IMG/VR virus record: IMGVR_UViG_3300025687_000040
Strand: one strand, 5' to 3'
Origin: a virus
DNA length: 64,000 nucleotides
Of this stretch, positions 1,814-64,000 are shown piece by piece. The translations under genes were made by a program, and so were the position numbers. The first letter of the stretch is position 1, and each line of letters begins with the position of its first letter. The notes under the pieces were generated by a model, which was not told the origin of the DNA, made no database searches, and was given only the letters and a program-made list of their open reading frames with translations.

Positions 1814-2254
1814 ATGCACACATCCCTTCTTCTTTTACCAGGTCGTTACTGGTATATCCCTTTTTTCTCAACTTACTATCTATTACCTGTTGTCAGACAG
1901 TCTCTGTATACGCTTGAACAAGACTTAATGACGTTAGATGGTAAACCACTCAAACTAAGGTCTGTGGTGTCTTACGAGGTCGATGACGTTATGACAGCGA
2001 TAGCTAAAGCCTACGAAGTAACAGACCAGATTGACGATGAAACTATGGGTCTAATCTGTCGTTATGTAGCTAGAAAAGAATTAAAAGAGTTAATGGATGA
2101 CCGGACAAAAATGAATAGGGAAATCACAGGTTTGGTTCATCGAAGAATGCAAGAATATGGAATTAGTGTTAAAAGAGTGCAAATTACATCTTTTATTTCC
2201 GGGTATTCAATACTCCATACCGGAATTGATATAAATCTAGGTGAACCTAAATGA
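1814..2254 (+). CDS. SPFH/band-7 (HflC-like) domain protein, apparently N-terminally truncated
   Basis: TLDGKPLKLRSVVSYEVDDVMTAIAKAYEVTDQ matches the SPFH core. The expected N-terminal TM and beta region is absent, and an in-frame TAA lies upstream at 1739. Confidence 0.45.
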   Translation: MHTSLLLLPGRYWYIPFFSTYYLLPVVRQSLYTLEQDLMTLDGKPLKLRSVVSYEVDDVMTAIAKAYEVTDQIDDETMGLICRYVARKELKELMDDRTKMNREITGLVHRRMQEYGISVKRVQITSFISGYSILHTGIDINLGEPK

Positions 2255-5200
2255 CTGAACGCTTAAGAGTAGAAATATTATCCGAACTTAATGATGCTTG
2301 GCTTAATATTAATTATAATAAAAATGAGTTATGTAAGCCTTTCGATTTACTCACTACAGACGATCCAGAGGAATTTTACAAGACGTTTACCTGGCTAATG
2401 ATACAGCCTGAGTACTTCTGTTTTCTCTGTAAGAACATATTGAATATAGACCTTGTCCCTTTTCAAGGACTTATGCTTGAGGAAATCTGGAAGCGAAAGT
2501 TTCCCATGCTGATTGGTAGTCGTGGGGTAGGAAAAACGTTTCTACTATCCCTTTATTCATTGATGAGGGCATTAATCATGCCCGAAAGAAAAGTCGTTGT
2601 GGTAGGGTCTGCGTTCCGCCAGTCTAAGTTCTTACATGACTATATGGAGACGATTTGGAAAAGGTCGCCCATATTAAGAGACTTATGCGATTCTAACAGT
2701 GGTCCACGTCGTGATGTAGATATGTGCCGGATGATTATCAATAGTAGTCAGGTAACAGCTCTGCCTATTGGAGATGGATGCGTAAGTCCTTTTACATTAA
2801 CTACTTACAATAATTCTATTGGAAATATTATTGAAGGAGATAGTTATTCTAATGTTTGGGGAAATGGTAAATTTCGTGATATTGAGTATTCAATAGATAA
2901 TGGCGTCAAACCCACCAAGATTATCACTACAAAACGGGGTTATTCGTATGAAGGCACCTATAATCACGCAATGAAAGTTCTTCGTAATGGTTCTGTTGAT
3001 TGGGTTAGAACTGACAATATGCAAAAAGGAGATCGTATTTTAATCGATAGATCTCAAAGGTGGCATGAGGGAGATATTAATTGTAGTTTGGATCAAGCCT
3101 ATGCTCTAGGAGCAATGATCGGTGATGGTTGTTGGACAGATCCTTATGGTTTGAGTTTTGCGACTAAAGATAAAGAGATTATTGATAGAATAGACAACCT
3201 TATCCCTCAAATAGTTGCTAGACCAAATAAGAATGAAATCCTCTATAAGCCTTGGAAGATGTCAAAAGATGAAGTACATTGGAAGATCAGCTCTAAACCT
3301 TTAAGAAATAAATTTTTAGGATATTGGGGCTTAGATAAATGTTATGCTATAGATAAATGTCTACCTAGAACTATTTTGGAAGGCTCTAAGCGGCACATGT
3401 CTGAATGTCTTGCTGGATTATATGACACAGACGGTCACGTTTTTATAGACACTTCTCGTGGCGGAACCACAATCTCTGTCAATTTTACAAATACAAGTAA
3501 GAGACTTGTAGAACAAATTCAGTATATACTTCTGCATTACGGCATCGTTTCAACATTAACATATAGAGATCGTGACAAAAAATGGAACCGTGTTTATGAA
3601 TTAGGGATATATGGTAGAAATGTCAAATTATTTGCTGATCAGATTAACTTCCGTTTATCTAGAAAAAGAGACAGTCTTAATGCCGCTATTTCCCAAAAGA
3701 AACGCTGGAATAGCTTTGATGATACCGTTCCTGTGACTCAAGAGCAGGTTCTAACAGCTTTGGAAGGAGCTAGATATAAAGAATGCCTGTCTACATCTAA
3801 GGTCAAAAGTAGAAAAACTTTTCAAATTAATTTCTTACAAAAGGTCTTAGACCATATTGATCATATTCCCGATTGGGCAGAACTGGTAAATCCTGATATA
3901 TTCTATGATGAAGTATATTCTATAGAAGACTCGGAATGCCATACCTGTGATATACATGTTCCAGAAGGAAACGAATATTGTGCAAATGGGTTTTTTAGTC
4001 ATAACAGCAAGATTCGTGGTCAGCGTGCCAATGATATCATTGCAGACGAATTTGCTTCACAGTCCCGTGACATATTCGAAAACGTTATTGCCGGTTTTGG
4101 TGCCGTTTCCTCATCACCGTCCGAAGGCGTCAAATTAGCCGCAGCTAAGAATCTTGCAAAACAAAGAGGATATGACCCTTCTCTTTTACAAGAAAACTTT
4201 GCCAATGAAGACTTTGGTAACCAGATTGTTTTATCAGGAACAGCTTATTATGACTTTAATCATTTCTCAACATATTGGAAACGATGGCGTTCAATTATAA
4301 ACTCTAAGGGCGATCCTGTCAAGCTTAAAGAGACTTTTGGCGAAGAAAAAGTGCCGGATAGTTTCAACTGGAAAGATTATTCAGTTATTAGAATGCCTTT
4401 TGAGTTAATTCCTAAAGGATTTATGGATGACGCTCAAGTAGCCCGTTCTAAGGCTACCGTACATAACGGCATTTATCTGATGGAATTTAGTGCTGTTTTC
4501 TGTACAGATAGTGCAGGATTCTTTAAGAGAAGTTTGATTGAAGCATGTACGGGTTCTGAGCAAAAACCAATCAAGTTACCTTCTGGCGACTTATACTTTG
4601 ACCCCTCACTAAAGGGGCAAATTGATAAGCAATATATTATTGGTGTAGACCCTGCATCTGAAGTCGATAATTTTTCGATTGTTGTATTAGAAGTAAACTC
4701 AGATCATAGAAGAATAGCTCATGTTTGGACTACTACAAGAAAAGAGTATAATGAGAGATTAAAACGCGGATTAACAGAAGAAGGGGACTTCTACGCATAT
4801 TGTGCCAGACGTATTCGTGATCTAATGGGGGCTTTTCCAACTATTCATATCGCAATGGATGCTCAAGGTGGCGGAATTGCTGTAGCTGAAGCTTTACATG
4901 ATCCTGTTAGGCTTCTACCAGGAGAACTTCCTATTTGGCCTGTTATCGATGAAGACAAGGAAAAAGATACTGACGACGAACAGGGTCTTCATATATTAGA
5001 ATTATGCCAGTTTGCGAAATATGACTGGCTCTCTGAGGCTAATCATGGTCTAAGAAAAGATCTGGAAGATAAAGTTCTTCTATTCCCCAGATTTGATCCT
5101 ATTACAATTGGATTGTCTATTGAACAGGATAAAGCCAGTAACAGAACTTATGATACTTTGGAAGATTGTGTGATGGAAATTGAGGCATTGAAGGATGAAC

Positions 5201-5478
5201 TGTGTCTTATAGAAATTCGTCAGACTCCTACAGGTAGAGATCAGTGGAATACACCAGAAGTTAAGACAGGTGTGGGCAAGAAAGATAGACTGAGAAAAGA
5301 CCGATATTCAGCACTTTTAATGGCTAATATGGCTGCTCGACAAACTCGTAACGCCCGCATTCAAGACTCTTATGAAATTTATGGAGGCTTTGCTTCCGTG
5401 CCAGATAGTAATAAAAAAAGCGAGGCTATTTTTCTTGGTCCTAACTGGTATACAGAAAAAATGAATGGGGTTTATTAA
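2251..5478 (+). CDS. terL: Terminase large subunit interrupted by an intein
   Basis: Walker A GSRGVGKT lies before the insertion and Walker B-like IIADEFA after it. A nuclease-domain-like GVDPASEVDNFSIVVLEV sits C-terminally. The gene is placed upstream of the portal gene. Confidence 0.85.
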   Translation: MTERLRVEILSELNDAWLNINYNKNELCKPFDLLTTDDPEEFYKTFTWLMIQPEYFCFLCKNILNIDLVPFQGLMLEEIWKRKFPMLIGSRGVGKTFLLSLYSLMRALIMPERKVVVVGSAFRQSKFLHDYMETIWKRSPILRDLCDSNSGPRRDVDMCRMIINSSQVTALPIGDGCVSPFTLTTYNNSIGNIIEGDSYSNVWGNGKFRDIEYSIDNGVKPTKIITTKRGYSYEGTYNHAMKVLRNGSVDWVRTDNMQKGDRILIDRSQRWHEGDINCSLDQAYALGAMIGDGCWTDPYGLSFATKDKEIIDRIDNLIPQIVARPNKNEILYKPWKMSKDEVHWKISSKPLRNKFLGYWGLDKCYAIDKCLPRTILEGSKRHMSECLAGLYDTDGHVFIDTSRGGTTISVNFTNTSKRLVEQIQYILLHYGIVSTLTYRDRDKKWNRVYELGIYGRNVKLFADQINFRLSRKRDSLNAAISQKKRWNSFDDTVPVTQEQVLTALEGARYKECLSTSKVKSRKTFQINFLQKVLDHIDHIPDWAELVNPDIFYDEVYSIEDSECHTCDIHVPEGNEYCANGFFSHNSKIRGQRANDIIADEFASQSRDIFENVIAGFGAVSSSPSEGVKLAAAKNLAKQRGYDPSLLQENFANEDFGNQIVLSGTAYYDFNHFSTYWKRWRSIINSKGDPVKLKETFGEEKVPDSFNWKDYSVIRMPFELIPKGFMDDAQVARSKATVHNGIYLMEFSAVFCTDSAGFFKRSLIEACTGSEQKPIKLPSGDLYFDPSLKGQIDKQYIIGVDPASEVDNFSIVVLEVNSDHRRIAHVWTTTRKEYNERLKRGLTEEGDFYAYCARRIRDLMGAFPTIHIAMDAQGGGIAVAEALHDPVRLLPGELPIWPVIDEDKEKDTDDEQGLHILELCQFAKYDWLSEANHGLRKDLEDKVLLFPRFDPITIGLSIEQDKASNRTYDTLEDCVMEIEALKDELCLIEIRQTPTGRDQWNTPEVKTGVGKKDRLRKDRYSALLMANMAARQTRNARIQDSYEIYGGFASVPDSNKKSEAIFLGPNWYTEKMNGVY
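2779..4005 (+). mobile_element. Full intein (409 aa) with a LAGLIDADG homing endonuclease inside terL
   Basis: It starts with Cys (IGDG|CVSPF) and ends ...FFSHN followed by Ser +1. Two LAGLIDADG motifs are present, LGAMIGDGC and LAGLYDTDGHV. The extein frame is continuous. Confidence 0.85.
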
Positions 5479-5532: not shown

Positions 5533-7623
5533 ATGTCTGAAGAAAATCTTAGTACAGCTAAAAATCTATATATAGATATGAATGATAAAGATGCTTTAGA
5601 AAGAGCATCTGAAAATTTATCTTCATATCAAGGAATGATGTCCGCTAGTGCTTCAAGCCGGACCTTCCTCAGTATGGAGCCAGGTCTTTCTGTTCGTGAT
5701 AGTTATAGTAAAAATAGTTATTATGGATTCAGACCGGGGGAAGAACCTCCCAATCATCAACAGGATATTATGCAGCGATGTATGTCTGCATATGATAAAG
5801 TTGGAATTATAAAAAACGTTATCGACTTGATGGGCGATTTTGGCTCACAAGGGATTAGTTTGGTTCATAGTGATCCTAATGCCCAAAAATTCTATCGTCG
5901 TTGGTGGGAAGAAATTGGTGGGTCTGAACGATCTGAGCGTTTCTTAAATAATTTATTTCGTACCGGAAACGTTATTGTTAAACGTCGTTATGTGAAACTT
6001 ACTAAAGTAAATCAAAGAACTTTAACAAAGGGTGATGAAGATCTTAAATACCTCGAAGAGAAAATGTCTACTCGTAGAATTCCTTTTGTATACAATTTTC
6101 TTAATCCAACTACTATAGAAGTAGATGGTGGTGAGACTGCTTTATTTTCTGGCGATAAAAAATATTTTGTAAAAATCTCTAAAAAGATACGAGATGAATT
6201 TAAAAAGAAAAATTCGACACTCAAAAATCTTCCAGTTGATATAATTAACGCATTAAAAAATAATCAGGAAAGGATTGAACTAAAACCAGAAACTATAGAA
6301 GTCTTTCATTATAAGAAAGACGATTGGCAATTATGGGCATATCCCATGATTAACCCAATACTTGACGATATCACGATGCTTGAGAAGATGAAGCTTGCTG
6401 ATATGTCTGCTTTAGATGGTGCTATATCTAATATTCGTCTTTGGCGTCTAGGAGATCTTGAGCACAAAATTCTCCCAACAAAGGCAGCAATTGATAAATT
6501 GCGAGATGTCTTAGCTACTAACGTTGGTGGAGGAACAATGGATCTGGTTTGGGGTCCGGAAATTGACTTCAAAGAGAGTAATAGCCAGGTTTATAAATTC
6601 TTAGGTAATGAAAAGTATGGTCCTGTATTAAATAGCATATATGCCGGATTGGGTATTCCCCCAACTTTAACCGGAATTGCTGGACAGAGCGGCGGATTTA
6701 CTAACAATTTCATCTCTCTTAAAACATTAATTGAGAGACTTGAATACGGTAGAAATATGCTCTCTAAATTCTGGAATGGAGAAATCCGAAAAGTCCAGAA
6801 AGCTATGGGGTTCAAGAATCCCGCCTATATACATTTTGACCATATGATTCTATCTGATGATTCTTCAGAAAAAGCCTTGTTAATACAACTAGCTGATAGA
6901 GATGTTATTTCTCTCGAAACAGTTAGAGAAAGGTTTGGAGAAAATGAAGAGATTGAAACAGCTAGAGTCAAAAGAGAATCCAGAGCACGAGAAAGCTATA
7001 AGATTCCTCCTAAAGCTGGTCCTTATCATAATGCCCAACAGGAAGATGAGTTCAACAAGATTGCTCTTAATAAGGATCAGATCAGCATTGAGCAAGTATC
7101 TAGAGTAAAACGTAACCCCCAAGCTCCTATAGGTCAAGAGCCAGGAGCTAATCCAAAGTCAGAAAATCCTAAACAACCAAGTCCGGAAAATGGCAGACCT
7201 AAGAATGCTAGGGATACAAAACCTAGAAAACAAAGAAGGGTCAATCCAAGGACAAATCCTGGGAAAGCATCTGCCTTAATATGGGCAATATCGGCACAGA
7301 AGAAAATTGCCGACTCCCTGCTTCCTTCTTTTCTAGCTCATTGCAATAAGAAAGATTCAAGGACATTAACAAAGTCTCAGTCTAATGAGTTTGAACTTTT
7401 AAAACTAAGTGTATTATCACATTTGGAACTATTTCAAGAGATTACTGATGAAGTAATTCTTGGTATATTGGAAAGTGAACCAAATCTCACCCCCTTAATA
7501 CTATCTGAAATAGCTAGTCTTAAGCAAGATTTCTTCAATTCAAACTCTAAAGAACCATCACTAGAAGAGATGCGTCAAATTTATTGTTTTGCATACGTTC
7601 AAATAAAAGACGCCGAATTATAA
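5533..7623 (+). CDS. Putative portal protein
   Basis: A 696-aa protein immediately downstream of terL. Its size and position fit a portal. No diagnostic motif was verified. Confidence 0.5.
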   Translation: MSEENLSTAKNLYIDMNDKDALERASENLSSYQGMMSASASSRTFLSMEPGLSVRDSYSKNSYYGFRPGEEPPNHQQDIMQRCMSAYDKVGIIKNVIDLMGDFGSQGISLVHSDPNAQKFYRRWWEEIGGSERSERFLNNLFRTGNVIVKRRYVKLTKVNQRTLTKGDEDLKYLEEKMSTRRIPFVYNFLNPTTIEVDGGETALFSGDKKYFVKISKKIRDEFKKKNSTLKNLPVDIINALKNNQERIELKPETIEVFHYKKDDWQLWAYPMINPILDDITMLEKMKLADMSALDGAISNIRLWRLGDLEHKILPTKAAIDKLRDVLATNVGGGTMDLVWGPEIDFKESNSQVYKFLGNEKYGPVLNSIYAGLGIPPTLTGIAGQSGGFTNNFISLKTLIERLEYGRNMLSKFWNGEIRKVQKAMGFKNPAYIHFDHMILSDDSSEKALLIQLADRDVISLETVRERFGENEEIETARVKRESRARESYKIPPKAGPYHNAQQEDEFNKIALNKDQISIEQVSRVKRNPQAPIGQEPGANPKSENPKQPSPENGRPKNARDTKPRKQRRVNPRTNPGKASALIWAISAQKKIADSLLPSFLAHCNKKDSRTLTKSQSNEFELLKLSVLSHLELFQEITDEVILGILESEPNLTPLILSEIASLKQDFFNSNSKEPSLEEMRQIYCFAYVQIKDAEL

Positions 7624-10505: not shown

Positions 10506-10522
10506 GATATTTTGGCTATAAT

Positions 10523-10556
10523 AGAGAGGCGGGTTTTGGCCCGCCTCTCTTTTTTT
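10523..10556 (+). terminator. Rho-independent terminator after the capsid gene
   Basis: GAGAGGCGGGTTTTGGCCCGCCTCTC forms a hairpin followed by TTTTTTTATT. Confidence 0.75.
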
Positions 10557-10586
10557 ATTGAAAATAGTCTCTTTAGGAATCACAGA

Positions 10587-12197
10587 ATGTTTTTAAACGA
10601 ACAAACTAAATCAAAATTTGGATATGAAGTCAAAAACCTAAGTAAGTTCTCTCGTAAAAAAATATTAGCCCTCTGTGATTACTGTGAGAATACCTATGAA
10701 ACAACAATGAAAATATATAGTACTGGTAGAGATAAATTACCAAAAGACTGTTGTAAAAAATGTCGTGATAAAAAGAGGGAAGAGATATCTATACAGAAAC
10801 ATGGGGTGTCTAATCCATTCCAAAGAAAAGACATTAAAGATAAAATAAAAGAAACTAATTTGGAAAAATATGGAGCTGAACATCCTATGATGAATAAAAG
10901 CGTCCAGAATAGATCTAAAGAAACCTGCTTAAAAAAATACGGAGTAGAGTTTGCTGTACAATCTCAAGAAGTACAGAGTAAATATAAAGAAACTTGTATG
11001 AAAAGATATGGTGTAGAGAACGTATCTTCTGTTGATGAATTCAAAGAAAAAAGGAAAAACACTAACAAAAAATTATATGGTCATGAATACTATTTAGCTT
11101 CAGAATCATGTAAAAAATTATCAAAAGAAAAGTTTGGAGTTGATAACGTTTTCCAATTAGAAGAAGTTAGAAAGAAATCAAGACAAACCTGTCTAGATAG
11201 ATATGGAAAAGAATACTATATGCAGGTGCCGGAACATGCCTGTACTATCAATGCTAAGTCCATAAAAACAAAAACAGAAATGGGGCAGATAGAAACTCAT
11301 AAGGGCATGAACAAGACAGAATGGTCTCAAAGGATAGGTATTTCTAGAAGTTACTTTGCGACATTAGCAAATCAGCATGGATGGGACTATGCTATTAATT
11401 ACAAAAAGAGTATGACTAACATCGAAACCTTAATTTTTAATCTATTAAAAGAGAAAGGAATAGATTTTGAGTACAATAAAAAATTAGATAGATTTTACCC
11501 TGACTTTGTAATTCCGGAATTTAGTTTAATTATTGAAACGGACGGGTTATTTTGGCACTCAGATAAAATTCAACAGGATGACAGATATCATATAAATAAA
11601 AAAGACGCTTATGAAGCACTTGGTTATAAGTCCCTTTTCTTTTTAGAAGACGAGTTATTGAATAAATTTGAAATTGTTGAATCTATTATCAATAACAAAC
11701 TATCAATCAGCGATACTATTTATGCTAGGAAACTAAAAATTGGAAAAATGGGTGCTTCATTATCAAAAATGTTTTTTGAAGATAACCATTTAATGGGAAA
11801 AGGTCAGGGGCTAACATATACACTACATAATGATAAAATCGTTTATTGTGCTATGAGAGTCAGAAGAAAAAAAGATAATAATTGGGAAATTAGTAGATTC
11901 TGCCCAAAGAAGGGGTATTCTATTCCTGGGGGGTTCTCTAGACTATTAAAATCTTTTGAACTAGAGCACAATCCAGATAGTGTTACGACATTTATTGATA
12001 AAAGATACGGATCTGGAGAATATTTGTCTGATTTAGGATTTTCTTGTCAATCATGTTACAAAAGTTTTAAGTGGACAGACAATCAGTCTACCTATCACCG
12101 TATGAAATTCCCCTCAAATACTGGATATGAACACGGTATGAACAAGATTTGGGATTGTGGTCAGGCCAAATGGGTAAAAACCTATAATAAGGTGTAA
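10587..12197 (+). CDS. Homing-endonuclease-like protein with N-terminal tandem KYG repeats and a Vsr/DUF559-type PD-(D/E)xK core
   Basis: Five ~32-aa repeats (...LEKYGAEHP.., ..LKKYGVEFAVQSQEVQSKYKETCMKRYGVENV.., ..KKLYGHEY.., ..KEKFGVDNV.., ..LDRYGKEY). FYPDFVIPEFSLIIETDGLFWHSD matches the DUF559/Vsr iEiDG..wH motif. The track start 10512 is a TTG inside the terminator, so the ATG at 10587 is more plausible. Confidence 0.5.
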   Translation: MFLNEQTKSKFGYEVKNLSKFSRKKILALCDYCENTYETTMKIYSTGRDKLPKDCCKKCRDKKREEISIQKHGVSNPFQRKDIKDKIKETNLEKYGAEHPMMNKSVQNRSKETCLKKYGVEFAVQSQEVQSKYKETCMKRYGVENVSSVDEFKEKRKNTNKKLYGHEYYLASESCKKLSKEKFGVDNVFQLEEVRKKSRQTCLDRYGKEYYMQVPEHACTINAKSIKTKTEMGQIETHKGMNKTEWSQRIGISRSYFATLANQHGWDYAINYKKSMTNIETLIFNLLKEKGIDFEYNKKLDRFYPDFVIPEFSLIIETDGLFWHSDKIQQDDRYHINKKDAYEALGYKSLFFLEDELLNKFEIVESIINNKLSISDTIYARKLKIGKMGASLSKMFFEDNHLMGKGQGLTYTLHNDKIVYCAMRVRRKKDNNWEISRFCPKKGYSIPGGFSRLLKSFELEHNPDSVTTFIDKRYGSGEYLSDLGFSCQSCYKSFKWTDNQSTYHRMKFPSNTGYEHGMNKIWDCGQAKWVKTYNKV

Positions 12198-54099: not shown

Positions 54100-54814
54100 C
54101 CTCCCAGCTATGAACCATTTTTACTGTTTTTTGTTCTTCGCACATTTGAGATAACTTTTCTTGATAAGATACAACCTTATCTCCTTTGAGGTATTGAAAT
54201 AATGAGTTATTAATGACCATAGGAGAATCTAAAATTAGTCCAAGTCTTTTCATTTTTTCGTTTACAAAACAATTAATAGACTCTAGATGTTTCTGTTCTA
54301 CATTCTCATTAGAACCTAAAATAATTGAGTATCCATTTTTTACTTTTAGAAATGCATCCCTAATCTGTTCTTCTCTATTTTCGCTAAAACTTCTTAATAC
54401 ATAAAAATTATGATATTTGTCAGAAAAAACTTTCAATTTTTGAAAGTTATCTAATGTCACGACGCAAATACTGTAAACCTTCTCTCCTTTTGTAAAAGAG
54501 AGGACGTTATTAATAATGCCTTCTGTCTTTTCTAGATCATTATCCAGTATAATGAATGAAATGGGGAGCTTATTCTTTTCTAGAGACTGCTCTTTAGTTA
54601 GATTCTCACTGTTTTTATGAGGGCAAATTCTGTCAAATTGATAATGACCGTCAACTATTTGACAAATATTTGATTCTAACTTTATATTATCTAGAATTCC
54701 AATAGAACAATCTGTCCCATTTTCAAAAGAGCAGCCATTACAAGACATCCCAAAACTTTTCATAGCCAACTTTCTGTTTTTAAATTTATTAATCCTAAAC
54801 GGGCTTGTTCCCAA
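54074..54814 (-). CDS. Putative family 2 glycosyltransferase with an N-terminal Cys cluster
   Basis: ISFIILDNDLEKTEGIINNVLSF...ICVVTLDN resembles the GT-A N-terminal pattern. MSCNGCSF...CSIG...DRICPH is a Cys cluster. Confidence 0.4.
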   Translation of the reverse strand: MGTSPFRINKFKNRKLAMKSFGMSCNGCSFENGTDCSIGILDNIKLESNICQIVDGHYQFDRICPHKNSENLTKEQSLEKNKLPISFIILDNDLEKTEGIINNVLSFTKGEKVYSICVVTLDNFQKLKVFSDKYHNFYVLRSFSENREEQIRDAFLKVKNGYSIILGSNENVEQKHLESINCFVNEKMKRLGLILDSPMVINNSLFQYLKGDKVVSYQEKLSQMCEEQKTVKMVHSWEDVNEAVGI

Positions 54815-56400
54815 AAATTTTTATTTTTGGCCTTTTCAGTAAACATCCCCACAATTTGATCACGACTTAAAGGTCTATACTCTTCTCTATTAAAAATAGA
54901 AAGTTCACCATAGAAAAATCCGCCCGGATTATTACGGAACATACCAAAGTTCAAATCTCTAAGAAGTTTATTAAAAGCGTATGTATTTACTAATGATGGT
55001 TCGTTCAGAGTCACATTAATCAAAAAATCAAGAAAGTCCTTATTATTCATTTCTTTATTAGGCAAAGCGGTAGGATTCGCCATCATAGGTTCTACTGTCC
55101 AGTCAGAGAAATCTAAAAGGTCTATTTCTTCTTCCCAGACTTTTGCCGTTTTGTCCCAGCCATAGTGCTTCTCGAAAGATTCCCTAGTTTTTAAGCTATC
55201 TTGAATACGTAGAGACTGAGGCTTATTTAATAGCTCTTTCCATATTTCTACAGTATGATCTAAGTCAAGTAAAGCCCTATCACATCCCGTCTCCATTTCT
55301 AAATGTTTAGATCTAACTTTGATAGGATGTCCATTAAGTTTTCTGATCTCGGTCTCCATTGCCGAATAGTCTGTTCCCATGACTGGAATTCCGCAGGCTG
55401 CTGCCTCTACGACGGGAATACCAAATCCTTCAGATGATGCTGGCTGGATATAAACATCAAAGATATTGTAAATATCAGATAATACACTTCTGCTAACACC
55501 AGAAGATACGCTACTTAATTTAGATGAGAACTGTCCACAAGTAGGACAAGGCTGGACCGTATCTGCAAAATGACTATACGACACATTATTACAATTTCCA
55601 CAAACATACGTAAATAATACCCTTGATATAATCTCACTATCAATTAGGTACTTAGGAATATCCCAACCATTATCAGGGTAAGAAGTATGGCAGTAAAGAT
55701 AGGTATTTTTTTCACCTGTCTCTTTTAAGTACTTACCGAAAGCTTCAAATAATTCGGGGAATAATTTCCGACGTTGATTCCTCATGACTGTGCCAATAAT
55801 TTTCCAATCCGGGTTAATACCCATTTTGACTTTATGGGCATTCTTATCGAGCACTGGTTTGAATTCTTCAGAAGCAGATGGTGTGGCGGAACGTTTAACG
55901 TTCATATTAGGATTTGCATTTTTTAGAACATCTACAGCCCAATCAGAATATGTTAGAACAGTGTCAGCACTAGAAAATGTATCAATCCATTCTTCATTTT
56001 GAGGGCTGGCATCTACAGTAGGCATATAGATCCAGTTAAAGTACTTTCTTAAAGGTGAATGCTGAATATAAGAATCCATCCACCAATCTCTTATTGAACA
56101 AATATGATCAGGTTTGAAATCTATACAAACTCTTTCGAAACGCCATTTTCCGAACTGATTAGCTCCATCGCTCTTATAAGCTTCTTGCTGTTCCTGTGAA
56201 CTACCATTTGGCATATTCGGGTAGTTCTTCCAGGGGATAGAACTCCTCTCTTTATGATCCTCAGTACCATAAATAGAAAATTCTGCAATGTCATATTTTC
56301 CAGTTGCTTGCAACCTTGATATAACTTCTCGACTATATGTAGCATAGCCAGTATTTAAGTAACTAGCTTCGGAGACAAATAAAATTCTTTTTCTACGCAT
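54760..56400 (-). CDS. GT-B fold glycosyltransferase (GT4-like) with an inserted zinc ribbon
   Basis: GFGIPVVEAAACGIPVMGTDYSAMETE matches the GT4 E-x7-E region. CGNCNN...CPTCGQ forms the zinc ribbon. Confidence 0.55.
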   Translation of the reverse strand: MRRKRILFVSEASYLNTGYATYSREVISRLQATGKYDIAEFSIYGTEDHKERSSIPWKNYPNMPNGSSQEQQEAYKSDGANQFGKWRFERVCIDFKPDHICSIRDWWMDSYIQHSPLRKYFNWIYMPTVDASPQNEEWIDTFSSADTVLTYSDWAVDVLKNANPNMNVKRSATPSASEEFKPVLDKNAHKVKMGINPDWKIIGTVMRNQRRKLFPELFEAFGKYLKETGEKNTYLYCHTSYPDNGWDIPKYLIDSEIISRVLFTYVCGNCNNVSYSHFADTVQPCPTCGQFSSKLSSVSSGVSRSVLSDIYNIFDVYIQPASSEGFGIPVVEAAACGIPVMGTDYSAMETEIRKLNGHPIKVRSKHLEMETGCDRALLDLDHTVEIWKELLNKPQSLRIQDSLKTRESFEKHYGWDKTAKVWEEEIDLLDFSDWTVEPMMANPTALPNKEMNNKDFLDFLINVTLNEPSLVNTYAFNKLLRDLNFGMFRNNPGGFFYGELSIFNREEYRPLSRDQIVGMFTEKAKNKNFWEQARLGLINLKTESWL

Positions 56401-57177: not shown

Positions 57178-57413
57178 TTAATAGCTTCATCGAAGTTATA
57201 AAAGTCCTTAATGAATTCCTTTCCATTCAAATTGGACTTATATACTTGAAGTTTCGGAGATGTCTCATTTCTATATTTTTTCATAAAAAAACGTAGATCA
57301 CTAATCTCTGCATCCCCTTTTTTCACTATACAGCCATCTAAAAGAATTTTTTTATAACAATCTGATTCTTTTAACAGTCCAACTTCTAAGTATTCCGCAA
57401 ATGTTTCGCTCAT
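57141..57413 (-). CDS. Hypothetical protein
   Basis: Called from the ORF. Confidence 0.25.
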   Translation of the reverse strand: MSETFAEYLEVGLLKESDCYKKILLDGCIVKKGDAEISDLRFFMKKYRNETSPKLQVYKSNLNGKEFIKDFYNFDEAINCFRSLIKGVVA

Positions 57414-58525
57414 ATTTGAATAATCTCACTCACAATAAAGGAATCTCTATCTTTAGCCTTTTCGCCAAACAGGAGTACAGTGGCCGCTTCATAGATTATA
57501 TCCCCGTATTCTTCATAAATGTCAGGGAAAACAACAACATTCTCTAATTCCATAGATTCGTCCCTTACTGTGAGAAAAGCCATTAAAGTTTCATTTTTTG
57601 TTTTATGCTCATTATATTTTACTATTTCTACAGCCAATATGCTGCGTCCTAATTTGCCATCCGCAATATCTTTACAGCGAGCGTTGGCACTGGACGCATC
57701 ACGACATGCGTCTGTCTTTGAATATGTAAGAGGTACGCCTAAAAGATTTTCTTCAGCTAAACAGATTGTTAATGGTGTATCTTTTAAATCTCGCCCAGGA
57801 TTATCTAACCTATCAATGATACTATTAAATACAACTTGTCTCTTCTCACTTGAAATCGCACCGCCATTCTTTTTTAGTTGATTAATTTTTAGAAGGTTTT
57901 GCTTTAATGATAACTCAGAATCATATGTCTCAGTCAGCTTCTCTAACTCTTTTGCTGTTAACTCTTTAATACAAGAATATTCATGAAGCATTTCAGATCG
58001 ACTTTTCTTATATTTAGAAAACATTCCAACTGAAATTAGATTATTTACCGAACGCTTGTTTACTTTCGATAATACACGAACTAGAATAGACATCCAATTT
58101 TGCGTCACTTCCTGGCCTTGTTCTTTTATCAGCCTATCCATTTTTCTGAATTCATTCTGCCCCACATTCTTTACATTGGTAACCCCAAAATAAATAGCAC
58201 TATTTTGAATCGAATAGGTCTCATTCATATATTCAATAGATGGAATTCTTATCGGGATATTATCAAGTTTAGCACTTTCTACTAATTCATATGTCTCACG
58301 GTCAGAATCCATTTTCTCCTTAGCGTTTACCAGCCAGTTGAGATAGAAGCTTAATGGATGGTTTGCTTTTAAGTAAGCTGACCAATAGGCCATGTAAGCA
58401 TAACTTACTGCATGAGAATTAGATGTAGGTATTCCATTAGCGTAAAAAATATGATCTTTTGAATCTATTTCAATATCTATAGTATTTTCACGACCTAGAT
58501 ACTCAATTTCATATATAGATGACAT
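57410..58525 (-). CDS. dnaE: DNA polymerase III alpha (DnaE) C-terminal half preceded by a split-intein C fragment (DnaE-c)
   Basis: The N-terminal 36 aa MSSIYEIEYLGRENTIDIEIDSKDHIFYANGIPTSN align to DnaE split-intein IntC (compare Npu MIKIATRKYLGKQNVYDIGVERDHNFALKNGFIASN). The extein SHAVSYAYMAYWSAYLKANHP matches the DnaE KSHSAAYA...YLKAHYP region. An OB-fold-like segment (LAVEIVKYNEHKTKNETLMAFLTVRDESMELENVVVFPDIYEEY) follows. Confidence 0.8.
   Translation of the reverse strand: MSSIYEIEYLGRENTIDIEIDSKDHIFYANGIPTSNSHAVSYAYMAYWSAYLKANHPLSFYLNWLVNAKEKMDSDRETYELVESAKLDNIPIRIPSIEYMNETYSIQNSAIYFGVTNVKNVGQNEFRKMDRLIKEQGQEVTQNWMSILVRVLSKVNKRSVNNLISVGMFSKYKKSRSEMLHEYSCIKELTAKELEKLTETYDSELSLKQNLLKINQLKKNGGAISSEKRQVVFNSIIDRLDNPGRDLKDTPLTICLAEENLLGVPLTYSKTDACRDASSANARCKDIADGKLGRSILAVEIVKYNEHKTKNETLMAFLTVRDESMELENVVVFPDIYEEYGDIIYEAATVLLFGEKAKDRDSFIVSEIIQI
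58418..58525 (-). mobile_element. Split-intein C-terminal fragment (IntC, 36 aa) at the 5' end of dnaE-c
   Basis: It carries intein block F and G-like motifs and ends in Asn followed by Ser +1. The penultimate Ser matches known DnaE IntC. Confidence 0.75.
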
Positions 58526-58544
58526 AAGTTACTTTCATTTATCT

Positions 58545-59100
58545 TGAATAGGAAGGTCTAAATCATATAATCTCTCCAATCGCAAGCGTAACTGCGATTG
58601 TAACTGAGAGGGCATATAGGAGTATAACTTAGATCTTAACCGCCAGTCTAATTCAGAGTCTAAACATAAGCATAACGACGGATATAACTGCCAGTGAAAA
58701 TAAATGTATAAATGCGATTCTAACTGCCGACTATTCACTACCTTTCTCCAACTGCGAGTTTAGCTGCGAGTTTAGCTGCAAGTATAACTGCCAGTGTAAC
58801 TGCCAGTGTAACTGCGAGCTTAAATGCAAGTATAACTTTAAGTCTAACTGCGAGTGAAACTGCGAGTATAACTGCGAGTGAAACTGCGAGTTTAAGTGCG
58901 AGCTATTCACTATCTCTATCCAACTGCGAGTATAACTGCGAGTGTAACTGCGAGTATAACCGCCGGTATAACTGCGAGTGTAACTGCGAGTGTAACTGCG
59001 AGTTCAACTGCCAGAGTAACTGCCAGTATAACTGCGAGTGTAACTGCAAGACTAACTGTTCGCGTAACTGTAAGCTATTCATTAGTCCTGCCCCACTGAT
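58545..59100. repeat. Tandem array of three blocks (~172 bp each) of 13 units of 12 bp (consensus TAACTGCGAGTG)
   Basis: Three successive blocks each contain 13 units of 12 bp. Each is preceded by a ~16-nt punctuation such as ATTCACTATCTCTATCC. The left block is the most degenerate and the right block the best conserved. The ORFs reported inside read periodic artefacts such as (TASV)n and (SQLH)n. Confidence 0.85.
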
Positions 59101-59704
59101 CCGCCATTGCTTCACCAATACCCTTAAAAAAAATAGATCGTCTTTTCCCCCTATCTTTACCAGGACTCATATAATGTGTTTTATCAGTATCTTTTTTTAA
59201 CATATTTTTCATAAGATACTTAACATTGTTGGTTTCTCGTAAAAGAGGAAGGCCAAACAACCAAAGGGCAGTTTTCTTATTCTCTGTGTGTCCGAATTGC
59301 CAAGGTTGGATTATCTGAGAGTACGGACCCATGTATTCTAAAGCATAGGAGTGTGGGACGGGATTTTCAAGAGCAATACGGGGAATTCCGCAGTCTCTTA
59401 ATTTCTGAAAAAACTCCCCGCCTTTTCTCATATTCTCCCATCGGGTTTCGTCTCTACCATTTGTCTTAACTCCTTTTTTATAGAGCCATCGGACTGAAGA
59501 GTTGCAGAGATATGTACACGGAGGATGAAATATGGCTAAATCCCAGGTTCCTTTAGTTCTATTTAGTACGGAAAATATATCTTCTTGATAATGTTGTCCA
59601 GGGCTTAAAGTGGGTTCTGTGTCACACGACCACGCATCGTGACCACGAGAAGAAAATGCGTCTCGTACCACCCCCGAAAATTCGCATCCGATAATGACTC
59701 TCAC
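59075..59704 (-). CDS. Small orphan C5-cytosine DNA methyltransferase-like protein
   Basis: Motif I-like IIGCEFSGV, the PC catalytic motif FHPPCTYL and the ENV-like ALENPVP. No cognate restriction gene is nearby. Confidence 0.5.
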   Translation of the reverse strand: MRVIIGCEFSGVVRDAFSSRGHDAWSCDTEPTLSPGQHYQEDIFSVLNRTKGTWDLAIFHPPCTYLCNSSVRWLYKKGVKTNGRDETRWENMRKGGEFFQKLRDCGIPRIALENPVPHSYALEYMGPYSQIIQPWQFGHTENKKTALWLFGLPLLRETNNVKYLMKNMLKKDTDKTHYMSPGKDRGKRRSIFFKGIGEAMADQWGRTNE

Positions 59705-59777
59705 TTATTGCATCTTTCTAACTTTTTGGTGTATAGATAAGTAGTGACGTTCTGAATGTCTTATCTAGGAGTAAATT

Positions 59778-60476
59778 ATGCAGGTTGGCGATAAAATTGG
59801 AAAATTAGAAGTTTTAGAATTACGAGTCAAAAAACGTAATAATGGGGTCTATTATCATCTATGCCGCTGTGATTGTGGAAATAAGAAGGCTATGAAGGAG
59901 TACAACATTAAAAACAGCAAGGGGTGTGGATGTGGTGCTAAGGAAAAAACGGCGGGCATAGAAAATGGACAGACGTATGGAAAATGGACTGTGATTCGAG
60001 AATATTCTCGTAAGTCGTCTAAAAATAGGAATTGGTATCATTTGTGTCAATGCGAATGTGGTAACCATCAACACGTTCTTGGCGGTAACCTAAAAATGGG
60101 AAAATCAAACCAATGTATGAAATGTTCTGTAGAGTCTGAAGACACTTTACAGAATAAAATTTTTAGAGCCTATAAAAGCAGTGCAAAAGACAGAGGGCAT
60201 AGTTTTGATTTAGATTTGACCTATTTTTTGAAGGAGATAGATAAACCATGTCATTATTGTGGGGCTAAAAATTCTCGGACCACTTCAACTTATCATAAAG
60301 ACGAATCAAAAAGAAGGCATCTATTGTCTAATGGTTTAGATAGGGTAGATAATAATATAGGATATACTGAAGAAAACTGCGTCCCTTGCTGTACTACTTG
60401 TAACAGTATGAAAATGTGTTTGGGAAAAGATGAATTCTTGACCCATATTCAAAAGATCTATGATTTTAATCATTAA
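59778..60476 (+). CDS. HNH endonuclease (homing-type) with duplicated N-terminal Zn-binding modules
   Basis: Duplicated VYYHLCRCDCGN and NWYHLCQCECGN. The C-terminal NGLDRVDNNIGYTEENCVPCCTTCN is an HNH-like core. Confidence 0.6.
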   Translation: MQVGDKIGKLEVLELRVKKRNNGVYYHLCRCDCGNKKAMKEYNIKNSKGCGCGAKEKTAGIENGQTYGKWTVIREYSRKSSKNRNWYHLCQCECGNHQHVLGGNLKMGKSNQCMKCSVESEDTLQNKIFRAYKSSAKDRGHSFDLDLTYFLKEIDKPCHYCGAKNSRTTSTYHKDESKRRHLLSNGLDRVDNNIGYTEENCVPCCTTCNSMKMCLGKDEFLTHIQKIYDFNH

Positions 60477-60657
60477 TTAACCTTATCAAATTCATAAACC
60501 ATGTCCCAACATACGTCACACGTATGACAAGTAATTAATTGTTTGGGGATACCCGTAAGCTTGATTACATTATCAGCAGTAAGATTCTTAGTGTCTTGGC
60601 ATTGTGGACAGATTGGCAGTTTGTGGGAAATGCAGTCTGCCCTAATTTGGATAAATT

Positions 60658-61089
60658 TTATGATACCCCTTTCTCATGTATATTCCCGATCACTTCACAC
60701 TCAAAAGTATTATTTATATTCCAATTTATATTCTTCTCATCATTTTTATAAAAAAAGCCAGAACGTTCTTCTGAGAAATATATCTCTCCACTATGTTCAA
60801 ACTGATAAAACCAAGCTGGCTCACATTTAACTATATCGCCCTCATAGATCTCTTTACCGTTTCTGTCTTTAATGCCGGTGTATTGTTGGACGACAACATG
60901 ATTAGACACATCTTCTTTTACAAGTCCAGACGAAAACATTCCACCATAGTCATTGTAGATATCGTATACCTTATTTGGAAATACGTGATCTAACTCTAAT
61001 CCCTCATACTGATTTGCGTTAGAGATTAATAGATCATATCGAAATTTGTTGACTCTTTTATCCCAGAATCTAAATTTAATATCTCTCAT
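60658..61089 (-). CDS. YopX-family protein
   Basis: N-terminal MRDIKFRFWDK and C-terminal ...IGNIHEKG match YopX. Confidence 0.6.
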   Translation of the reverse strand: MRDIKFRFWDKRVNKFRYDLLISNANQYEGLELDHVFPNKVYDIYNDYGGMFSSGLVKEDVSNHVVVQQYTGIKDRNGKEIYEGDIVKCEPAWFYQFEHSGEIYFSEERSGFFYKNDEKNINWNINNTFECEVIGNIHEKGVS

Positions 61090-61513
61090 TAATTTCCTTT
61101 ACTACTGGACAGTTTTCAAAAGTGCAAAATTCTATTCTGTAATCATTGTTTTTGTGATTTACCGCCTTAATAATGATGTATGTGCCAAAATCAAATGATC
61201 CAGCCCCATTGCCAATAGCAACAGATGTTACTAACGCTTTTGATGAATTGTATATAATAGTGTCGCCGGGCCTGATGTCTTTTCCAAGTATAATTTCATA
61301 CATTATTCGTTTATCAACTCCTTCATCAGCTTCAAGAACTTGGTCAAGCATTTTTTTAGCAGTTAAAAGATCATCAGATTCAACACATTCAACAACCTGC
61401 CTTAGAATTTCTCTTCTAAACCCTGGCTGAGTATTGATTCTCTCAGTAACGGTCAAACTAAATGATTTGCCTATTTGATCTACTGCGTTTTCGATTTGTT
61501 CGTCAGAACTCAT
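61076..61513 (-). CDS. Hypothetical protein
   Basis: Called from the ORF. Confidence 0.25.
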   Translation of the reverse strand: MSSDEQIENAVDQIGKSFSLTVTERINTQPGFRREILRQVVECVESDDLLTAKKMLDQVLEADEGVDKRIMYEIILGKDIRPGDTIIYNSSKALVTSVAIGNGAGSFDFGTYIIIKAVNHKNNDYRIEFCTFENCPVVKEINERY

Positions 61514-61947
61514 TTATCAACCCCTTCAAAGATATTTCCGACAACAATAAATTGTTTGAAATTAAAAGTTACAATATTGCAGTCATTATGACCCCAATAG
61601 GCAGCGAGTCCACCAGTTTTCCATTTTACTTCACACTGAACCCAATTCGTTTTTTCTTCCGAAAGTTCAAGTCCGACGATGAATGGACCAGATTTATGTG
61701 GATATAGAACATAATCTCCCTCGTAAATCTCTCGACCATTCTTATCTTTGAGTCCGGTATATTGCTGGATGACTATATCATCCATTTGGCAGTTGATATT
61801 ACTGTGTTCTTTACTTTTTCTGTCATAAAGAAATACCTCGCAACCTTTTCCGTAGTCCTTTAAAGAAAGAATAGGATCTTCCTCTGCCCACGGATCAAGC
61901 CATCGGTTTTCTTTTTTGTGCCAAACCCGAAATTTAATATTTCTCAT
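61510..61947 (-). CDS. YopX-family protein (paralogue of 60658..61089)
   Basis: MRNIKFRVWHKKENRW ... VVGNIFEG. Confidence 0.6.
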   Translation of the reverse strand: MRNIKFRVWHKKENRWLDPWAEEDPILSLKDYGKGCEVFLYDRKSKEHSNINCQMDDIVIQQYTGLKDKNGREIYEGDYVLYPHKSGPFIVGLELSEEKTNWVQCEVKWKTGGLAAYWGHNDCNIVTFNFKQFIVVGNIFEGVDK

Positions 61948-62380
61948 TAATATTTATCCTAACTTTCAAAAACCCATCTTTATCTTGATTGGATGATGCC
62001 CAGCCTATATGTTCACATTGTTTTCTCCAAGTGATCTCACCCTTTTTGGATACGTACATTGGTTGCCCTGTGGGTATTTTATCATATTTCCTATGGATAA
62101 CAATTTCACCATCTTGTAAGATTCTGATCTTATTTCCTAAATTTACTACATTTGAACGGGCATGACTTGGGTGCTTTGTTAAATCAATATTTACCACATA
62201 TACGGTAGAGACGCCCAATAATTTATCTCCCGGTTTTCTGTTTTTAAAACTTCGGGCCATCATAGGATCGTCGTCGTAGTTTCCATACAAAGGATCGCCA
62301 ATTTCAATTTCGTCTTCGCAGAACCATTGAATTGCTTCGCTTATGCTGTCAGTTACTCTCGCTCTCATTTTCCACCCCAC
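61934..62380 (-). CDS. Hypothetical protein
   Basis: The track start is a GTG. The ATG giving MRARVTDS lies 12 nt inside. Confidence 0.25.
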   Translation of the reverse strand: MGWKMRARVTDSISEAIQWFCEDEIEIGDPLYGNYDDDPMMARSFKNRKPGDKLLGVSTVYVVNIDLTKHPSHARSNVVNLGNKIRILQDGEIVIHRKYDKIPTGQPMYVSKKGEITWRKQCEHIGWASSNQDKDGFLKVRININEKY

Positions 62381-62587
62381 TCATTCCAATGATCGTACAT
62401 ATCTGTCATTCCAATGATCGTACATATCTGCCCTTGACTTTAATAGTTTTTCCCGATCTTCTTTTGAAATAAAGATAGGATTTACATCCATTAGACTTAC
62501 TGGCGGCACATTCCAGAAGGGTATTTTAGCATTTAAATGGGGAATGTCAATATATCCGTCTGGCTCTTTTTCTGACTTGTCAGTCAT
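62381..62587 (-). CDS. Hypothetical small protein (3' end altered by a 25-bp tandem duplication)
   Basis: The ORF ends within two direct copies of CAGATATGTACGATCATTGGAATGA. Confidence 0.25.
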   Translation of the reverse strand: MTDKSEKEPDGYIDIPHLNAKIPFWNVPPVSLMDVNPIFISKEDREKLLKSRADMYDHWNDRYVRSLE

Positions 62588-62799
62588 TTATCAACTCCAT
62601 AATAATATCCATATGTATCCAGTGGAACCTTGTAGGTATTGCTGGTTTCAGTAATAATCATCTTGTATAAACGACCATCTGGATGATGACCATTTTGATG
62701 TTCGAGCCATAGTTCAATAGCAGAGTCTTCATCTTCTGCGTTTACAAAGTCAAAACCTTCGTTGCCATCTCTTTCCCACATTACAATGTAATTAGTCAT
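62584..62799 (-). CDS. Hypothetical small protein
   Basis: Called from the ORF. Confidence 0.2.
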   Translation of the reverse strand: MTNYIVMWERDGNEGFDFVNAEDEDSAIELWLEHQNGHHPDGRLYKMIITETSNTYKVPLDTYGYYYGVDK

Positions 62800-62802
62800 T
62801 TG

Positions 62803-63027
62803 TCAACTCCTAAATTCTGTTCTATAAGTATACCACCAAACTTTACATTTATGACATTCAGTTCTGTATTCTGGATCAAGAATCATTTTAGTGGTTTGTA
62901 GTGGAGTGCTGACGGTCTTTGTATCATGATATAGAGGGCAGATTTCTAACTTTGATTCCATAACCACTTTTCCTTCATGGTATTTTGGAACATCAATATA
63001 TTTATATTCCTTCATGTTTAACCTCAA
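62803..63027 (-). CDS. Hypothetical small protein (Cys/His pair; possible Zn-binding)
   Basis: Called from the ORF. Contains CPLYHD...CHKC. Confidence 0.2.
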   Translation of the reverse strand: MRLNMKEYKYIDVPKYHEGKVVMESKLEICPLYHDTKTVSTPLQTTKMILDPEYRTECHKCKVWWYTYRTEFRS

Positions 63028-63521
63028 TATTTTTCACAGTAACAACTCTTCCCATCTTCAAGGTAGCGATTACATCCTCGACAAAAATGTCGGAATACTT
63101 TAGCTCTATCCTCTTGAGATAGCTCTTTTAATTGAGCTAGTGATACGCTTGGCAGGTCTATCATAACACCTGTTGGAGCAAAGTCAACAGCTTTAAATCC
63201 AGTTTTGATTTTCTCAAAGGTCGCTGAATCAATATCAACGGGATCATCATAAATTGGGCTACCATTCTTAAATCCACGAATATTATGAACCCACCCTTTT
63301 GACTCATAACCGCATCTTGGACAGGTATAAATACCCATACAAAAACAGTGACTACCCTGAGCAGCCATGATACATCCACATTCTTTACAATCAATAGCTC
63401 CGAGGCATCCCGCTCCGGGTTGGTTTCTCCAGCTATAATCAATTGGTTCTGTTCTGGTTTTACCAGTGTCGATTATGTAATCACTCATATTTATCCCTAG
63501 TAATAGTCTGGATGCGAACAC
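63024..63521 (-). CDS. Cys-rich zinc-binding protein
   Basis: GCLGAIDCKECGC...CFC...CPRCGY and CRGCNRY...CYCEKY. Confidence 0.3.
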   Translation of the reverse strand: MFASRLLLGINMSDYIIDTGKTRTEPIDYSWRNQPGAGCLGAIDCKECGCIMAAQGSHCFCMGIYTCPRCGYESKGWVHNIRGFKNGSPIYDDPVDIDSATFEKIKTGFKAVDFAPTGVMIDLPSVSLAQLKELSQEDRAKVFRHFCRGCNRYLEDGKSCYCEKY

Positions 63522-63748
63522 TGAACATAATTACCACCAGAAGACAAAGCTGCTATAAACCCGTTTTCTGAGTAATCTTTATGAGATTTGTCTACAAGTA
63601 CAAACTGCCCCCCTTCGTAGCCAGAGGCTCTTTGTAGGTCGCTGATAGCTTTGGAAAAATCCGAGTACCATCCATCTATATTTCTTTCTCGGTTATCATA
63701 AGAAACTAGATTTCCGTTGAATTTGTATAGCCTGTATTCTTTTTGCAT
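63497..63748 (-). CDS. Hypothetical small protein
   Basis: Called from the ORF. Confidence 0.2.
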   Translation of the reverse strand: MQKEYRLYKFNGNLVSYDNRERNIDGWYSDFSKAISDLQRASGYEGGQFVLVDKSHKDYSENGFIAALSSGGNYVQCSHPDYY

Positions 63749-63897
63749 AAGTGTGAATATACCGCCTCTCTAAATTCTGTATCTGACAAACCCCATTCAT
63801 TGGCTATTAGAATAAGATGTTGTGGTAAAGAAAATCGGAGTCCATATCTGGTTTCGGGGTATTCTATTATCTTACCACGCGGCAAGCCGCGTGTCAA
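63706..63897 (-). CDS. Hypothetical small protein
   Basis: Called from the ORF. Confidence 0.2.
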   Translation of the reverse strand: MTRGLPRGKIIEYPETRYGLRFSLPQHLILIANEWGLSDTEFREAVYSHLCKKNTGYTNSTEI

Positions 63898-64000
63898 GTT
63901 AATTCACAAGATCGCAGATGTATTCCAGAATGAACACTCTCGGAGCCAGCCAGCATTTCAGAGCGACTTGGATGGGCGAGAGAGTAGCACAGAAAGTGAG

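Follow-up and report, generated by a model that had tools for sequence, protein, structure and literature searches.

A C-terminal intein fragment fused to the end of DnaE

We analysed a 64,000-nt stretch of viral DNA (IMG/VR record IMGVR_UViG_3300025687_000040; 'the window' denotes this whole stretch) that carries on its minus strand, at 57410..58525, an open reading frame (ORF) encoding a 371-aa protein. The ORF begins with the first ATG after the in-frame stops that lie directly upstream. Its residues 1-36, MSSIYEIEYLGRENTIDIEIDSKDHIFYANGIPTSN, are encoded by 36 codons at 58418..58525 (-) and contain blocks F and G of a class-1 split mini-intein, that is, its C-terminal fragment (IntC). The C-extein begins SHAVSYAYMAYWSAYLKANHP and occupies 57410..58417 (-), comprising Ser+1, a further 334 aa of the DNA polymerase III alpha subunit (Pol III alpha, DnaE), covering the finger end, the helix-hairpin-helix (HhH) region and the OB fold, and the stop codon. 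A promoter and terminator scan around the gene gave signals at background level only.

When residues 1-40 alone were used to search the PDB, all seven matches were inteins, including gp41-1 (the best match, E=0.019), the Npu DnaE IntC and the Neq Pol IntC. The block F/G end of the fragment reads ...DIEIDSKDHIFYANGIPTSN/S (here and below, a slash inside a sequence marks the splice junction), with the terminal Asn36 encoded at 58418-58420 and the Ser+1 nucleophile at 58415-58417. The D, H, F and Y residues of the IntC and its final SN are kept in 21 family members, and the fragment is collinear with the C-termini of cis inteins in two homologues (P0096 and P0099) and in Rhodococcus phage Peregrin.

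From residue 36 on, the protein matched phage Pol III alpha (phrog_405, profile positions 793-1055 of 1190, E=1.7e-36). An HHH_6 helix-hairpin-helix domain lies at 57992..58258 (-), corresponding to residues 90-178 (Pfam PF14579, E=4e-9, 37 bits against a cut-off of 25.6). An AlphaFold model of the 371-aa protein, built from 26 homologues, was confident for residues 39-371 (predicted local distance difference test [pLDDT] ~90), which form a helical region, the HhH and a C-terminal OB barrel; the strands of this beta-barrel lie at residues ~294-370 (57416..57646, minus strand). Residues 1-38 were unstructured in the model (pLDDT <50), as expected for an IntC without its partner. Foldseek matched the model to solved Pol III alpha/DnaE1 chains (7PU7, E=3.6e-13; also 4IQJ, 2HPI, 3E0D and 5FKU), with alignments to 7PU7, 4IQJ, 2HPI and 5FKU spanning ~340-360 columns, and to OB-fold/single-stranded DNA-binding protein (SSB) structures; the OB region of the relatives gave weak matches to Pfam tRNA_anti-codon. 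The extein is the end of the fingers, HHH_6 and the OB fold in DnaE order, and its nearest relatives are phage DnaE proteins.

The intein-only PDB matches, phrog_405 and HHH_6 confirm that the N-terminal 36 aa are the IntC of a split intein fused to a C-terminal fragment of Pol III alpha, as the initial annotation of this gene had proposed, and its reading of Ser at +1 was also correct. It had, however, described the extein as the C-terminal half of the polymerase, and the fragment is only the last 335 aa, ~30% of Pol III alpha.

The partner fragment and the insertion site

In the relatives of this phage (contigs numbered L below), DnaE is encoded in pieces: a PHP+palm gene of ~600 aa, an RNase T exonuclease gene, often accompanied by a non-specific nuclease gene, a finger-domain gene, and the IntC gene. 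The finger gene encodes ~265 aa ending ...RYSFNK, followed by an N-terminal intein fragment (IntN) of 86-100 aa and a stop codon. Its block A reads (C or S)-L-x-x-D-T-x-V-E and its block B C-T-x-x-H-K-F-L, the block B residues being invariant across the family. IntN fragments were found in L002, L005, L009, L017 and L096-L098. Among the best 120 finger-gene homologues, an IntN with Cys1 was present in 68 clusters and one with Ser1 in 11, while 30 had none. Wherever the sequence of a relative extends far enough, the partner gene is found on the same strand as the IntC gene and upstream of it. The distance from the IntN stop to the IntC start is 25 nt in L005, 898 nt in L017, where it is filled by an ORF for a DUF559/Vsr-like + NUMOD3 endonuclease, 3.3 kb in L002, and 5.6 kb with 19 small ORFs in L097.

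These data change several expectations held at the outset. The partner had been expected to be fused to the PHP and palm domains, whereas in all relatives the IntN ends a separate finger gene of ~265 aa and the PHP/palm part is on a further gene or genes. The lack of a nearby DnaE-n gene had been regarded as an oddity; the window simply ends too early for an upstream partner. Nor is the arrangement rare, as had been supposed, given the 79 clusters with an IntN, an IntC in ~21 of the best 120 C-fragment homologues, and the publication of fractured DnaE genes in 2009 (PMC2677866).

One close relative is IMGVR_UViG_3300025889_000076 (142,148 nt), hereafter the sibling, which shares 98.5% nucleotide identity with the window over 10,173 nt. 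Its C-fragment protein (contig positions 1661-2773) is identical to that of the window at 370 of 371 residues (E6K). At the other end of the contig, on the same strand, is a finger gene that ends FNK/CLALDTLVELENGDMITIEDVSIGDKVKTPDGYAVVKNKYNNGIQDVFRVNIGGKEIKCTITHKFLSKDGKILPLWSFLFTGQPIHE and a stop codon; the ~87-aa IntN has Cys1 (FNK/CLALDT...KCTITHKF...) and the block B sequence C-T-I-T-H. What is effectively one and the same phage species thus does carry the partner, and the window stops short of it. The two contig ends do not overlap, so a circularly permuted genome would place the halves at least 4.95 kb apart.

Joining the sibling IntN to the window IntC gave a 123-aa intein that aligned end to end with gp41-1 (E=3.4e-8; residues 4-123 against gp41-1 chain residues 7-128, 37 bits over ~120 aligned residues), compared with E ~5e-5 for Npu DnaE. 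The natural break of the joined intein falls at the natural split site of gp41-1 (...HE/MSS... vs ...KE/MML..., the slash here marking the break). By sequence similarity, the intein is thus closest to the phage/metagenome gp41-1 split intein and not to the cyanobacterial DnaE intein. A pairing rule by which an IntC ending in IPTSN would go with a Ser1 IntN was considered and rejected; it is true in L002 and L097 and is broken by the sibling, in which IPTSN occurs with Cys1.

The insertion site was defined by a homologue search over 5.8 billion proteins, in which junction classes were read from the best 120 matches. In ~80 of the 120, the junction is uninterrupted; these are proteins of ~507 aa that read ...NRYSFNKSHAVSYA..., with the consensus RYSFN[KRA]SHAVSYA, and intein-less alleles run continuously through the site as ...RYSFNKSHAVSYA.... 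The ~21 C-fragment homologues are proteins of ~370 aa that open with a segment of 35-39 aa, with [TG]SN immediately before SH. Two homologues, P0096 (633 aa) and P0099 (650 aa), have a contiguous cis insert of ~125-140 aa between FNK and SH, with C or S as its first residue and an SN end. The P0096 insert matched gp41-1 (6QAZ) over its full length (E=4e-11), with a weaker match to Npu DnaE (1e-6). Gp100 of Rhodococcus phage Peregrin carries a cis intein at the identical FNK/SH site.

The element therefore breaks up a host motif that intein-less alleles carry in one piece, the N-extein ending ...RYSFNK and the C-extein of the window starting SHA. One and the same site is seen empty, with a cis mini-intein, endonuclease-fractured, tightly split (25 nt) and widely split (>5 kb). 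It is not the 'conserved DnaE split site' to which the intein had initially been assigned, because the cyanobacterial-type DnaE-c proteins retrieved by the same search (...LIASN/CFNKSHSTAYAY) read N/CFNKSH, as in P0112-P0119; the window site, FNK/SHA, is four residues C-terminal of it, and the intein is nearer to gp41-1 than to Npu or Ssp DnaE.

Trans-splicing and its alternatives

Comparison of the window with L002 and L097 gave ratios of nonsynonymous to synonymous substitution rates (dN/dS) of 0.05-0.14 for the 36 IntC codons and 0.03-0.07 for the extein, with synonymous sites near saturation. The IntC codons are thus under purifying selection. Asn36, Ser+1 and the block F Asp and His are kept in split members whose identity to the window protein ranges from 33% to 86%, as are IntN residue 1 (Cys1 or Ser1) and the block B Thr and His. 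The net charge is -5 for the IntC and +3 for the C-lobe of the IntN, a polarity like that of gp41-1. From the catalytic conservation, the low dN/dS of the IntC and the charge complementarity, we infer class-1 trans-splicing. We consider it highly probable that the gene is one piece of a phage DnaE with a gp41-1-like IntC, that its partner is an IntN of ~87 aa on an upstream, same-strand finger gene outside the window, and that the two are trans-spliced. The trans-spliced replicative polymerase that the initial annotation foresaw is, on these sequence data, a likely outcome.

In such a pathway, the acidic IntC would capture the basic C-lobe of the IntN after translation, and together they would form a HINT domain. 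Along the standard class-1 route, residue 1 would undergo an N-S (or N-O) acyl shift, followed by transesterification to Ser+1. Asn36 would then cyclise, and an O-N shift would complete the reaction, giving a finger-HhH-OB polypeptide of ~513 aa with the junction RYSFNK-SHAVSYAYMAYWSAYLK (...RYSFNK-SHAVSYA...), the same as in the uninterrupted alleles of most relatives. This chain would presumably join the separately encoded PHP-palm chain by non-covalent assembly, and in the sibling the PHP-palm chain may itself be assembled by a second split intein.

Several observations weigh against this interpretation. The penultimate residue of the intein is Ser rather than the canonical His, although a non-His residue also occupies this position in the efficient Npu DnaE intein. 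The Pro at -4 (IPTSN) is unusual, since most family members have IATSN; the window shares IPTSN with P0001, P0002 and P0004. As had been noted initially, the window contains no partner: tblastn with the finger-IntN, PHP/palm and RNase T proteins of relatives found no finger/IntN or PHP/palm DnaE gene in the 64 kb (none below E=0.5). Nor was any DnaE or IntN found in the 5.2 kb beyond the window end that could be walked along overlapping metagenome contigs (L012/L013 at 100% identity, L011 and L094), which hold small ORFs and arrays of a QL repeat. Either more than 10.7 kb separates the halves here, or the walk entered a different mosaic. Homologues of the 263-aa DUF6745 ORF of L094 led to contigs L099 and L100, and no DnaE was found there. 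Window or L011 sequence also gave no match in exact-pattern scans of IMG/VR and GTDB genomes, and exact-protein look-ups returned only contigs that end before the window end. Among cultured relatives, neither a megablast of the region against INPHARED nor a tblastn of the ORF at 5533-7623 (696 aa) produced a match.

One alternative is that the intein halves no longer splice and persist as a non-covalent dimerisation module or a tolerated remnant, so that the finger and C-terminal pieces act as separate subunits. The family does tolerate an intein-free break between its PHP/palm and finger genes, the penultimate Ser would suit such a loss, and the halves lie at a distance from each other and may lack co-regulation. 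Yet the terminal Asn and the nucleophiles would be needless for a pure docking module, and it is precisely these residues, with the block F Asp/His and the block B Thr/His, that are kept in split members of 33-86% identity, in an IntC whose dN/dS is as low as that of the extein. We therefore regard loss of splicing as improbable. More improbable still is a gene fragment in decay or left orphaned by loss of the IntN piece, the phage replicating with a host or other polymerase. The failure to find a partner in the 64 kb and the further 5.2 kb would agree with this, as would the position of the gene next to an upstream hypervariable insertion hotspot; but the ORF is intact and 370/371 identical to that of a sibling that carries the partner, exactly identical copies of the 371-aa protein occur in independent assemblies, purifying selection acts on intein and extein parts alike, and DnaB, primase, RecA and RNase T in the relative L005 argue for an autonomous replisome.

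We give hardly any credence to the idea, implied by the alignment in the initial annotation, that this is a direct relative of the cyanobacterial split DnaE intein, of the same allele, taken by a cyanophage from its host. It has in its favour the same host protein, a 36-aa IntC with an SN end, and recognisable block F/G similarity. Against it stand the four-residue offset of the site, Ser instead of Cys at +1, the better match of gp41-1 to both the IntC alone and the whole intein, the actinophage cis intein at the same FNK/SH site, and an extein nearest to phage DnaE. The IntN of the FNK/SH family, at 86-100 aa, is also shorter than the cyanobacterial DnaE IntN, which has 102-123 aa. The reading of the gene as one part of a gp41-1-like, trans-splicing phage DnaE is thus the one that we retain.

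Surroundings of the locus and comparison with known systems

At least 5.5 kb of unrelated cargo lies in the window on the side where the partner is expected. Directly upstream of the IntC gene, at 58535..59118 (-), are three tandem mini-ORFs of 67, 59 and 71 aa made of xQLx tetrads, neighbours of which overlap by 8 nt. Tandem Repeats Finder (TRF) reported a 12-nt period in x25 copies at 58750-59058, and the mini-ORFs had no PHROG match. Similar QL arrays of 50-71-aa mini-ORFs occur in L011 (130-1070) and L094 (137-521, 2238-2426 and 2777-3717); they recur at several places in related genomes and coincide with contig breaks. Next come a DNA methyltransferase gene at 59075..59704 (-) (209 aa; phrog_757, E=1.9e-50) and a free-standing HNH endonuclease gene at 59778..60476 (+) (232 aa; phrog_374, E=5e-22), both of which were identified by PHROGs and had no Pfam match. 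The repeat array and methyltransferase named as neighbours in the initial annotation are thus both present. A block of ~1.9 kb (58754-60675), comprising part of the QL array, the methyltransferase and the HNH endonuclease, is also found in L006/L008 and is replaced by ~22 nt in the 98.5%-identical sibling (L101 1411-1432); from this comparison, it looks like a mobile cassette that was recently gained or lost. The remainder, 60658..64000 (-), holds a YopX gene (60658-61089; Pfam YopX, E=4e-17) and about ten small ORFs up to the window edge. The stretch between the intein halves is a hypervariable mosaic (60658-64000; L006, L009-L014, L097 and L100), in which kilobase-sized blocks of small ORFs (YopX paralogues, DUF6745, Pyr_excise-like and rIIB-like) distinguish near-identical phages, and blocks common to several relatives stand in different orders.

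Inteins and breaks also occur elsewhere in these polymerases. In intein-free relatives, Pol III alpha is encoded by two genes, PHP+palm (~600 aa) and finger-HhH-OB (~507 aa), with an RNase T-type exonuclease gene between them, a break without an intein (L002 1085-6469, L005 6684-9975). The PHP/palm gene is intact in L002, L005 and L096; that of the sibling (L014 4156-7452) is fractured by a second split intein (GPGRG/CFLPDT... and ...LGVHN/SAAGS), and between its halves are a 71-aa ORF and a 275-aa ORF for a TnsA-like/Vsr-like endonuclease. The finger gene of the sibling (L014 9032-10627) has an additional 266-aa HNH-containing cis intein (AIRPG/CISGDS...FIVHN/SLKAKQ), so that a cis intein and a split-intein IntN share one small gene; L009, 99% identical on both flanks, is without it. 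Pol III alpha of the sibling is accordingly distributed over four genes, with two split inteins and one endonuclease-containing cis intein, and an exonuclease, a nuclease and many accessory genes are interspersed.

Other genes of these phages have inteins as well. The full intein that had been noticed in terL was borne out, the ORF at 2251-5478 (+) (1075 aa) containing LAGLIDADG_3 (E=3.8e-18) and Intein_splicing (E=2.7e-8). A 561-aa ORF amid structural genes (10512-12197, plus strand) encodes a homing endonuclease (phrog_3339, E=8e-71; phrog_559 HNH, E=7e-41). The glycosyltransferase gene of the window (54760-56400, minus strand) encodes 546 aa and is intein-free; in the 86%-related lineage L002-L004 it encodes 934 aa with an Intein_splicing/LAGLIDADG insert (L002 11846-14650). 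Intein presence thus differs gene by gene among close relatives.

The closest known intein, gp41-1, is a naturally split intein of metagenomic, cyanophage-like origin (Dassa et al. 2009, PMC2677866; PDB 6QAZ/6RIZ). It was the best PDB match, and both are mini-inteins of ~123-125 aa (87+36 here, 88+37 in gp41-1) with Cys1 and Ser+1, an acidic IntC, a basic IntN C-lobe, and a phage or metagenome origin. They differ in the host protein, a DnaB-like helicase for gp41-1 and DnaE here, and in the C-terminal end (HN vs SN), and the sequence similarity is significant yet modest. The cyanobacterial DnaE inteins (Ssp and Npu) share with the window intein a Pol III alpha split in the same conserved finger motif, two separate genes, and a 36-aa IntC with a penultimate residue other than His (ASN/AAN there, TSN here; that slash separates alternatives). 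However, they are inserted four residues upstream (N/CFNKSH vs FNK/SH) and have Cys+1, and their similarity is weaker (E ~5e-5 vs 3e-8 for gp41-1). Their N-piece is one protein of ~900 aa with PHP, palm and fingers, whereas here the IntN ends a 265-aa finger gene, and they belong to cellular genomes rather than to a phage. Peregrin gp100 has the identical site (...EYSFNK/CLAEDT...FLTHN/SHSVAYS), but its intein is cis-splicing, ~190 aa long and has an HN end, and only two genes encode its DnaE.

The cysteine-less split inteins listed in two 2025 papers (Aes123 PolB1, CL and CLm, CP21, LCGC14 and GOM-OPS-1) are in PolB of T4-like phages and have an IntN of 115-120 aa (PMC11923092, PMC12707363). 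Their Ser1 and Ser+1 recur in sister alleles of the window intein (L002, L096 and L097; P0123-125, P0127, P0129, P0130 and others), and the IntCs of L002 and L097 end in the same 13 residues, DHIFYANGIPTSN, as that of the window. In contrast, the likely partner of the window IntC has Cys1, and the Ser1 IntNs of the FNK/SH family keep one non-catalytic Cys in block B. Since those two reports name PolB inteins only, these Ser1/Ser+1 sister alleles are the part with practical novelty. We tentatively suggest that the FNK/SH family holds natural pairs without a catalytic Cys, which, if efficient, would be gp41-1-like and redox-insensitive and lie outside PolB, and that the window IntC might accept both Cys1 and Ser1 partners; if true, nucleophile switching and orthogonality could be studied in a natural series. 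For protein engineering, the family is a large and diverse natural set of gp41-1-related split inteins, combining Ser+1 with Cys1 or Ser1, that are candidate orthogonal or redox-tolerant ligation tools.

No new mechanism emerges from this locus. DnaE genes fractured by split inteins have been known from marine metagenomes since 2009, when three loci from the GOS (Global Ocean Sampling) marine data (DnaE-1, -2 and -3) were described, each having a free-standing endonuclease and split-intein halves at a site other than the cyanobacterial one (PMC2677866), and the window gene belongs to that kind. By their description, they resemble the present family in having a phage-like DnaE, non-cyanobacterial split sites and a GIY-YIG or Vsr-like endonuclease gene between the halves. 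This layout is exact in the relative L017 for the intein studied here and in the sibling for the palm-gene intein. The window differs in that its gap holds repeat mini-genes, a methyltransferase, an opposite-strand HNH endonuclease, YopX and others, with the N-part outside the window. Dassa et al. (2009, PMC2677866) proposed that once the endonuclease is lost the two halves become uncoupled, and the window locus corresponds to the late stage in this scheme. The allele states at this one site form a natural series for that published model of how split inteins arise and their halves drift apart, and for phage biology they show the extent to which an essential replicase gene can be taken apart.

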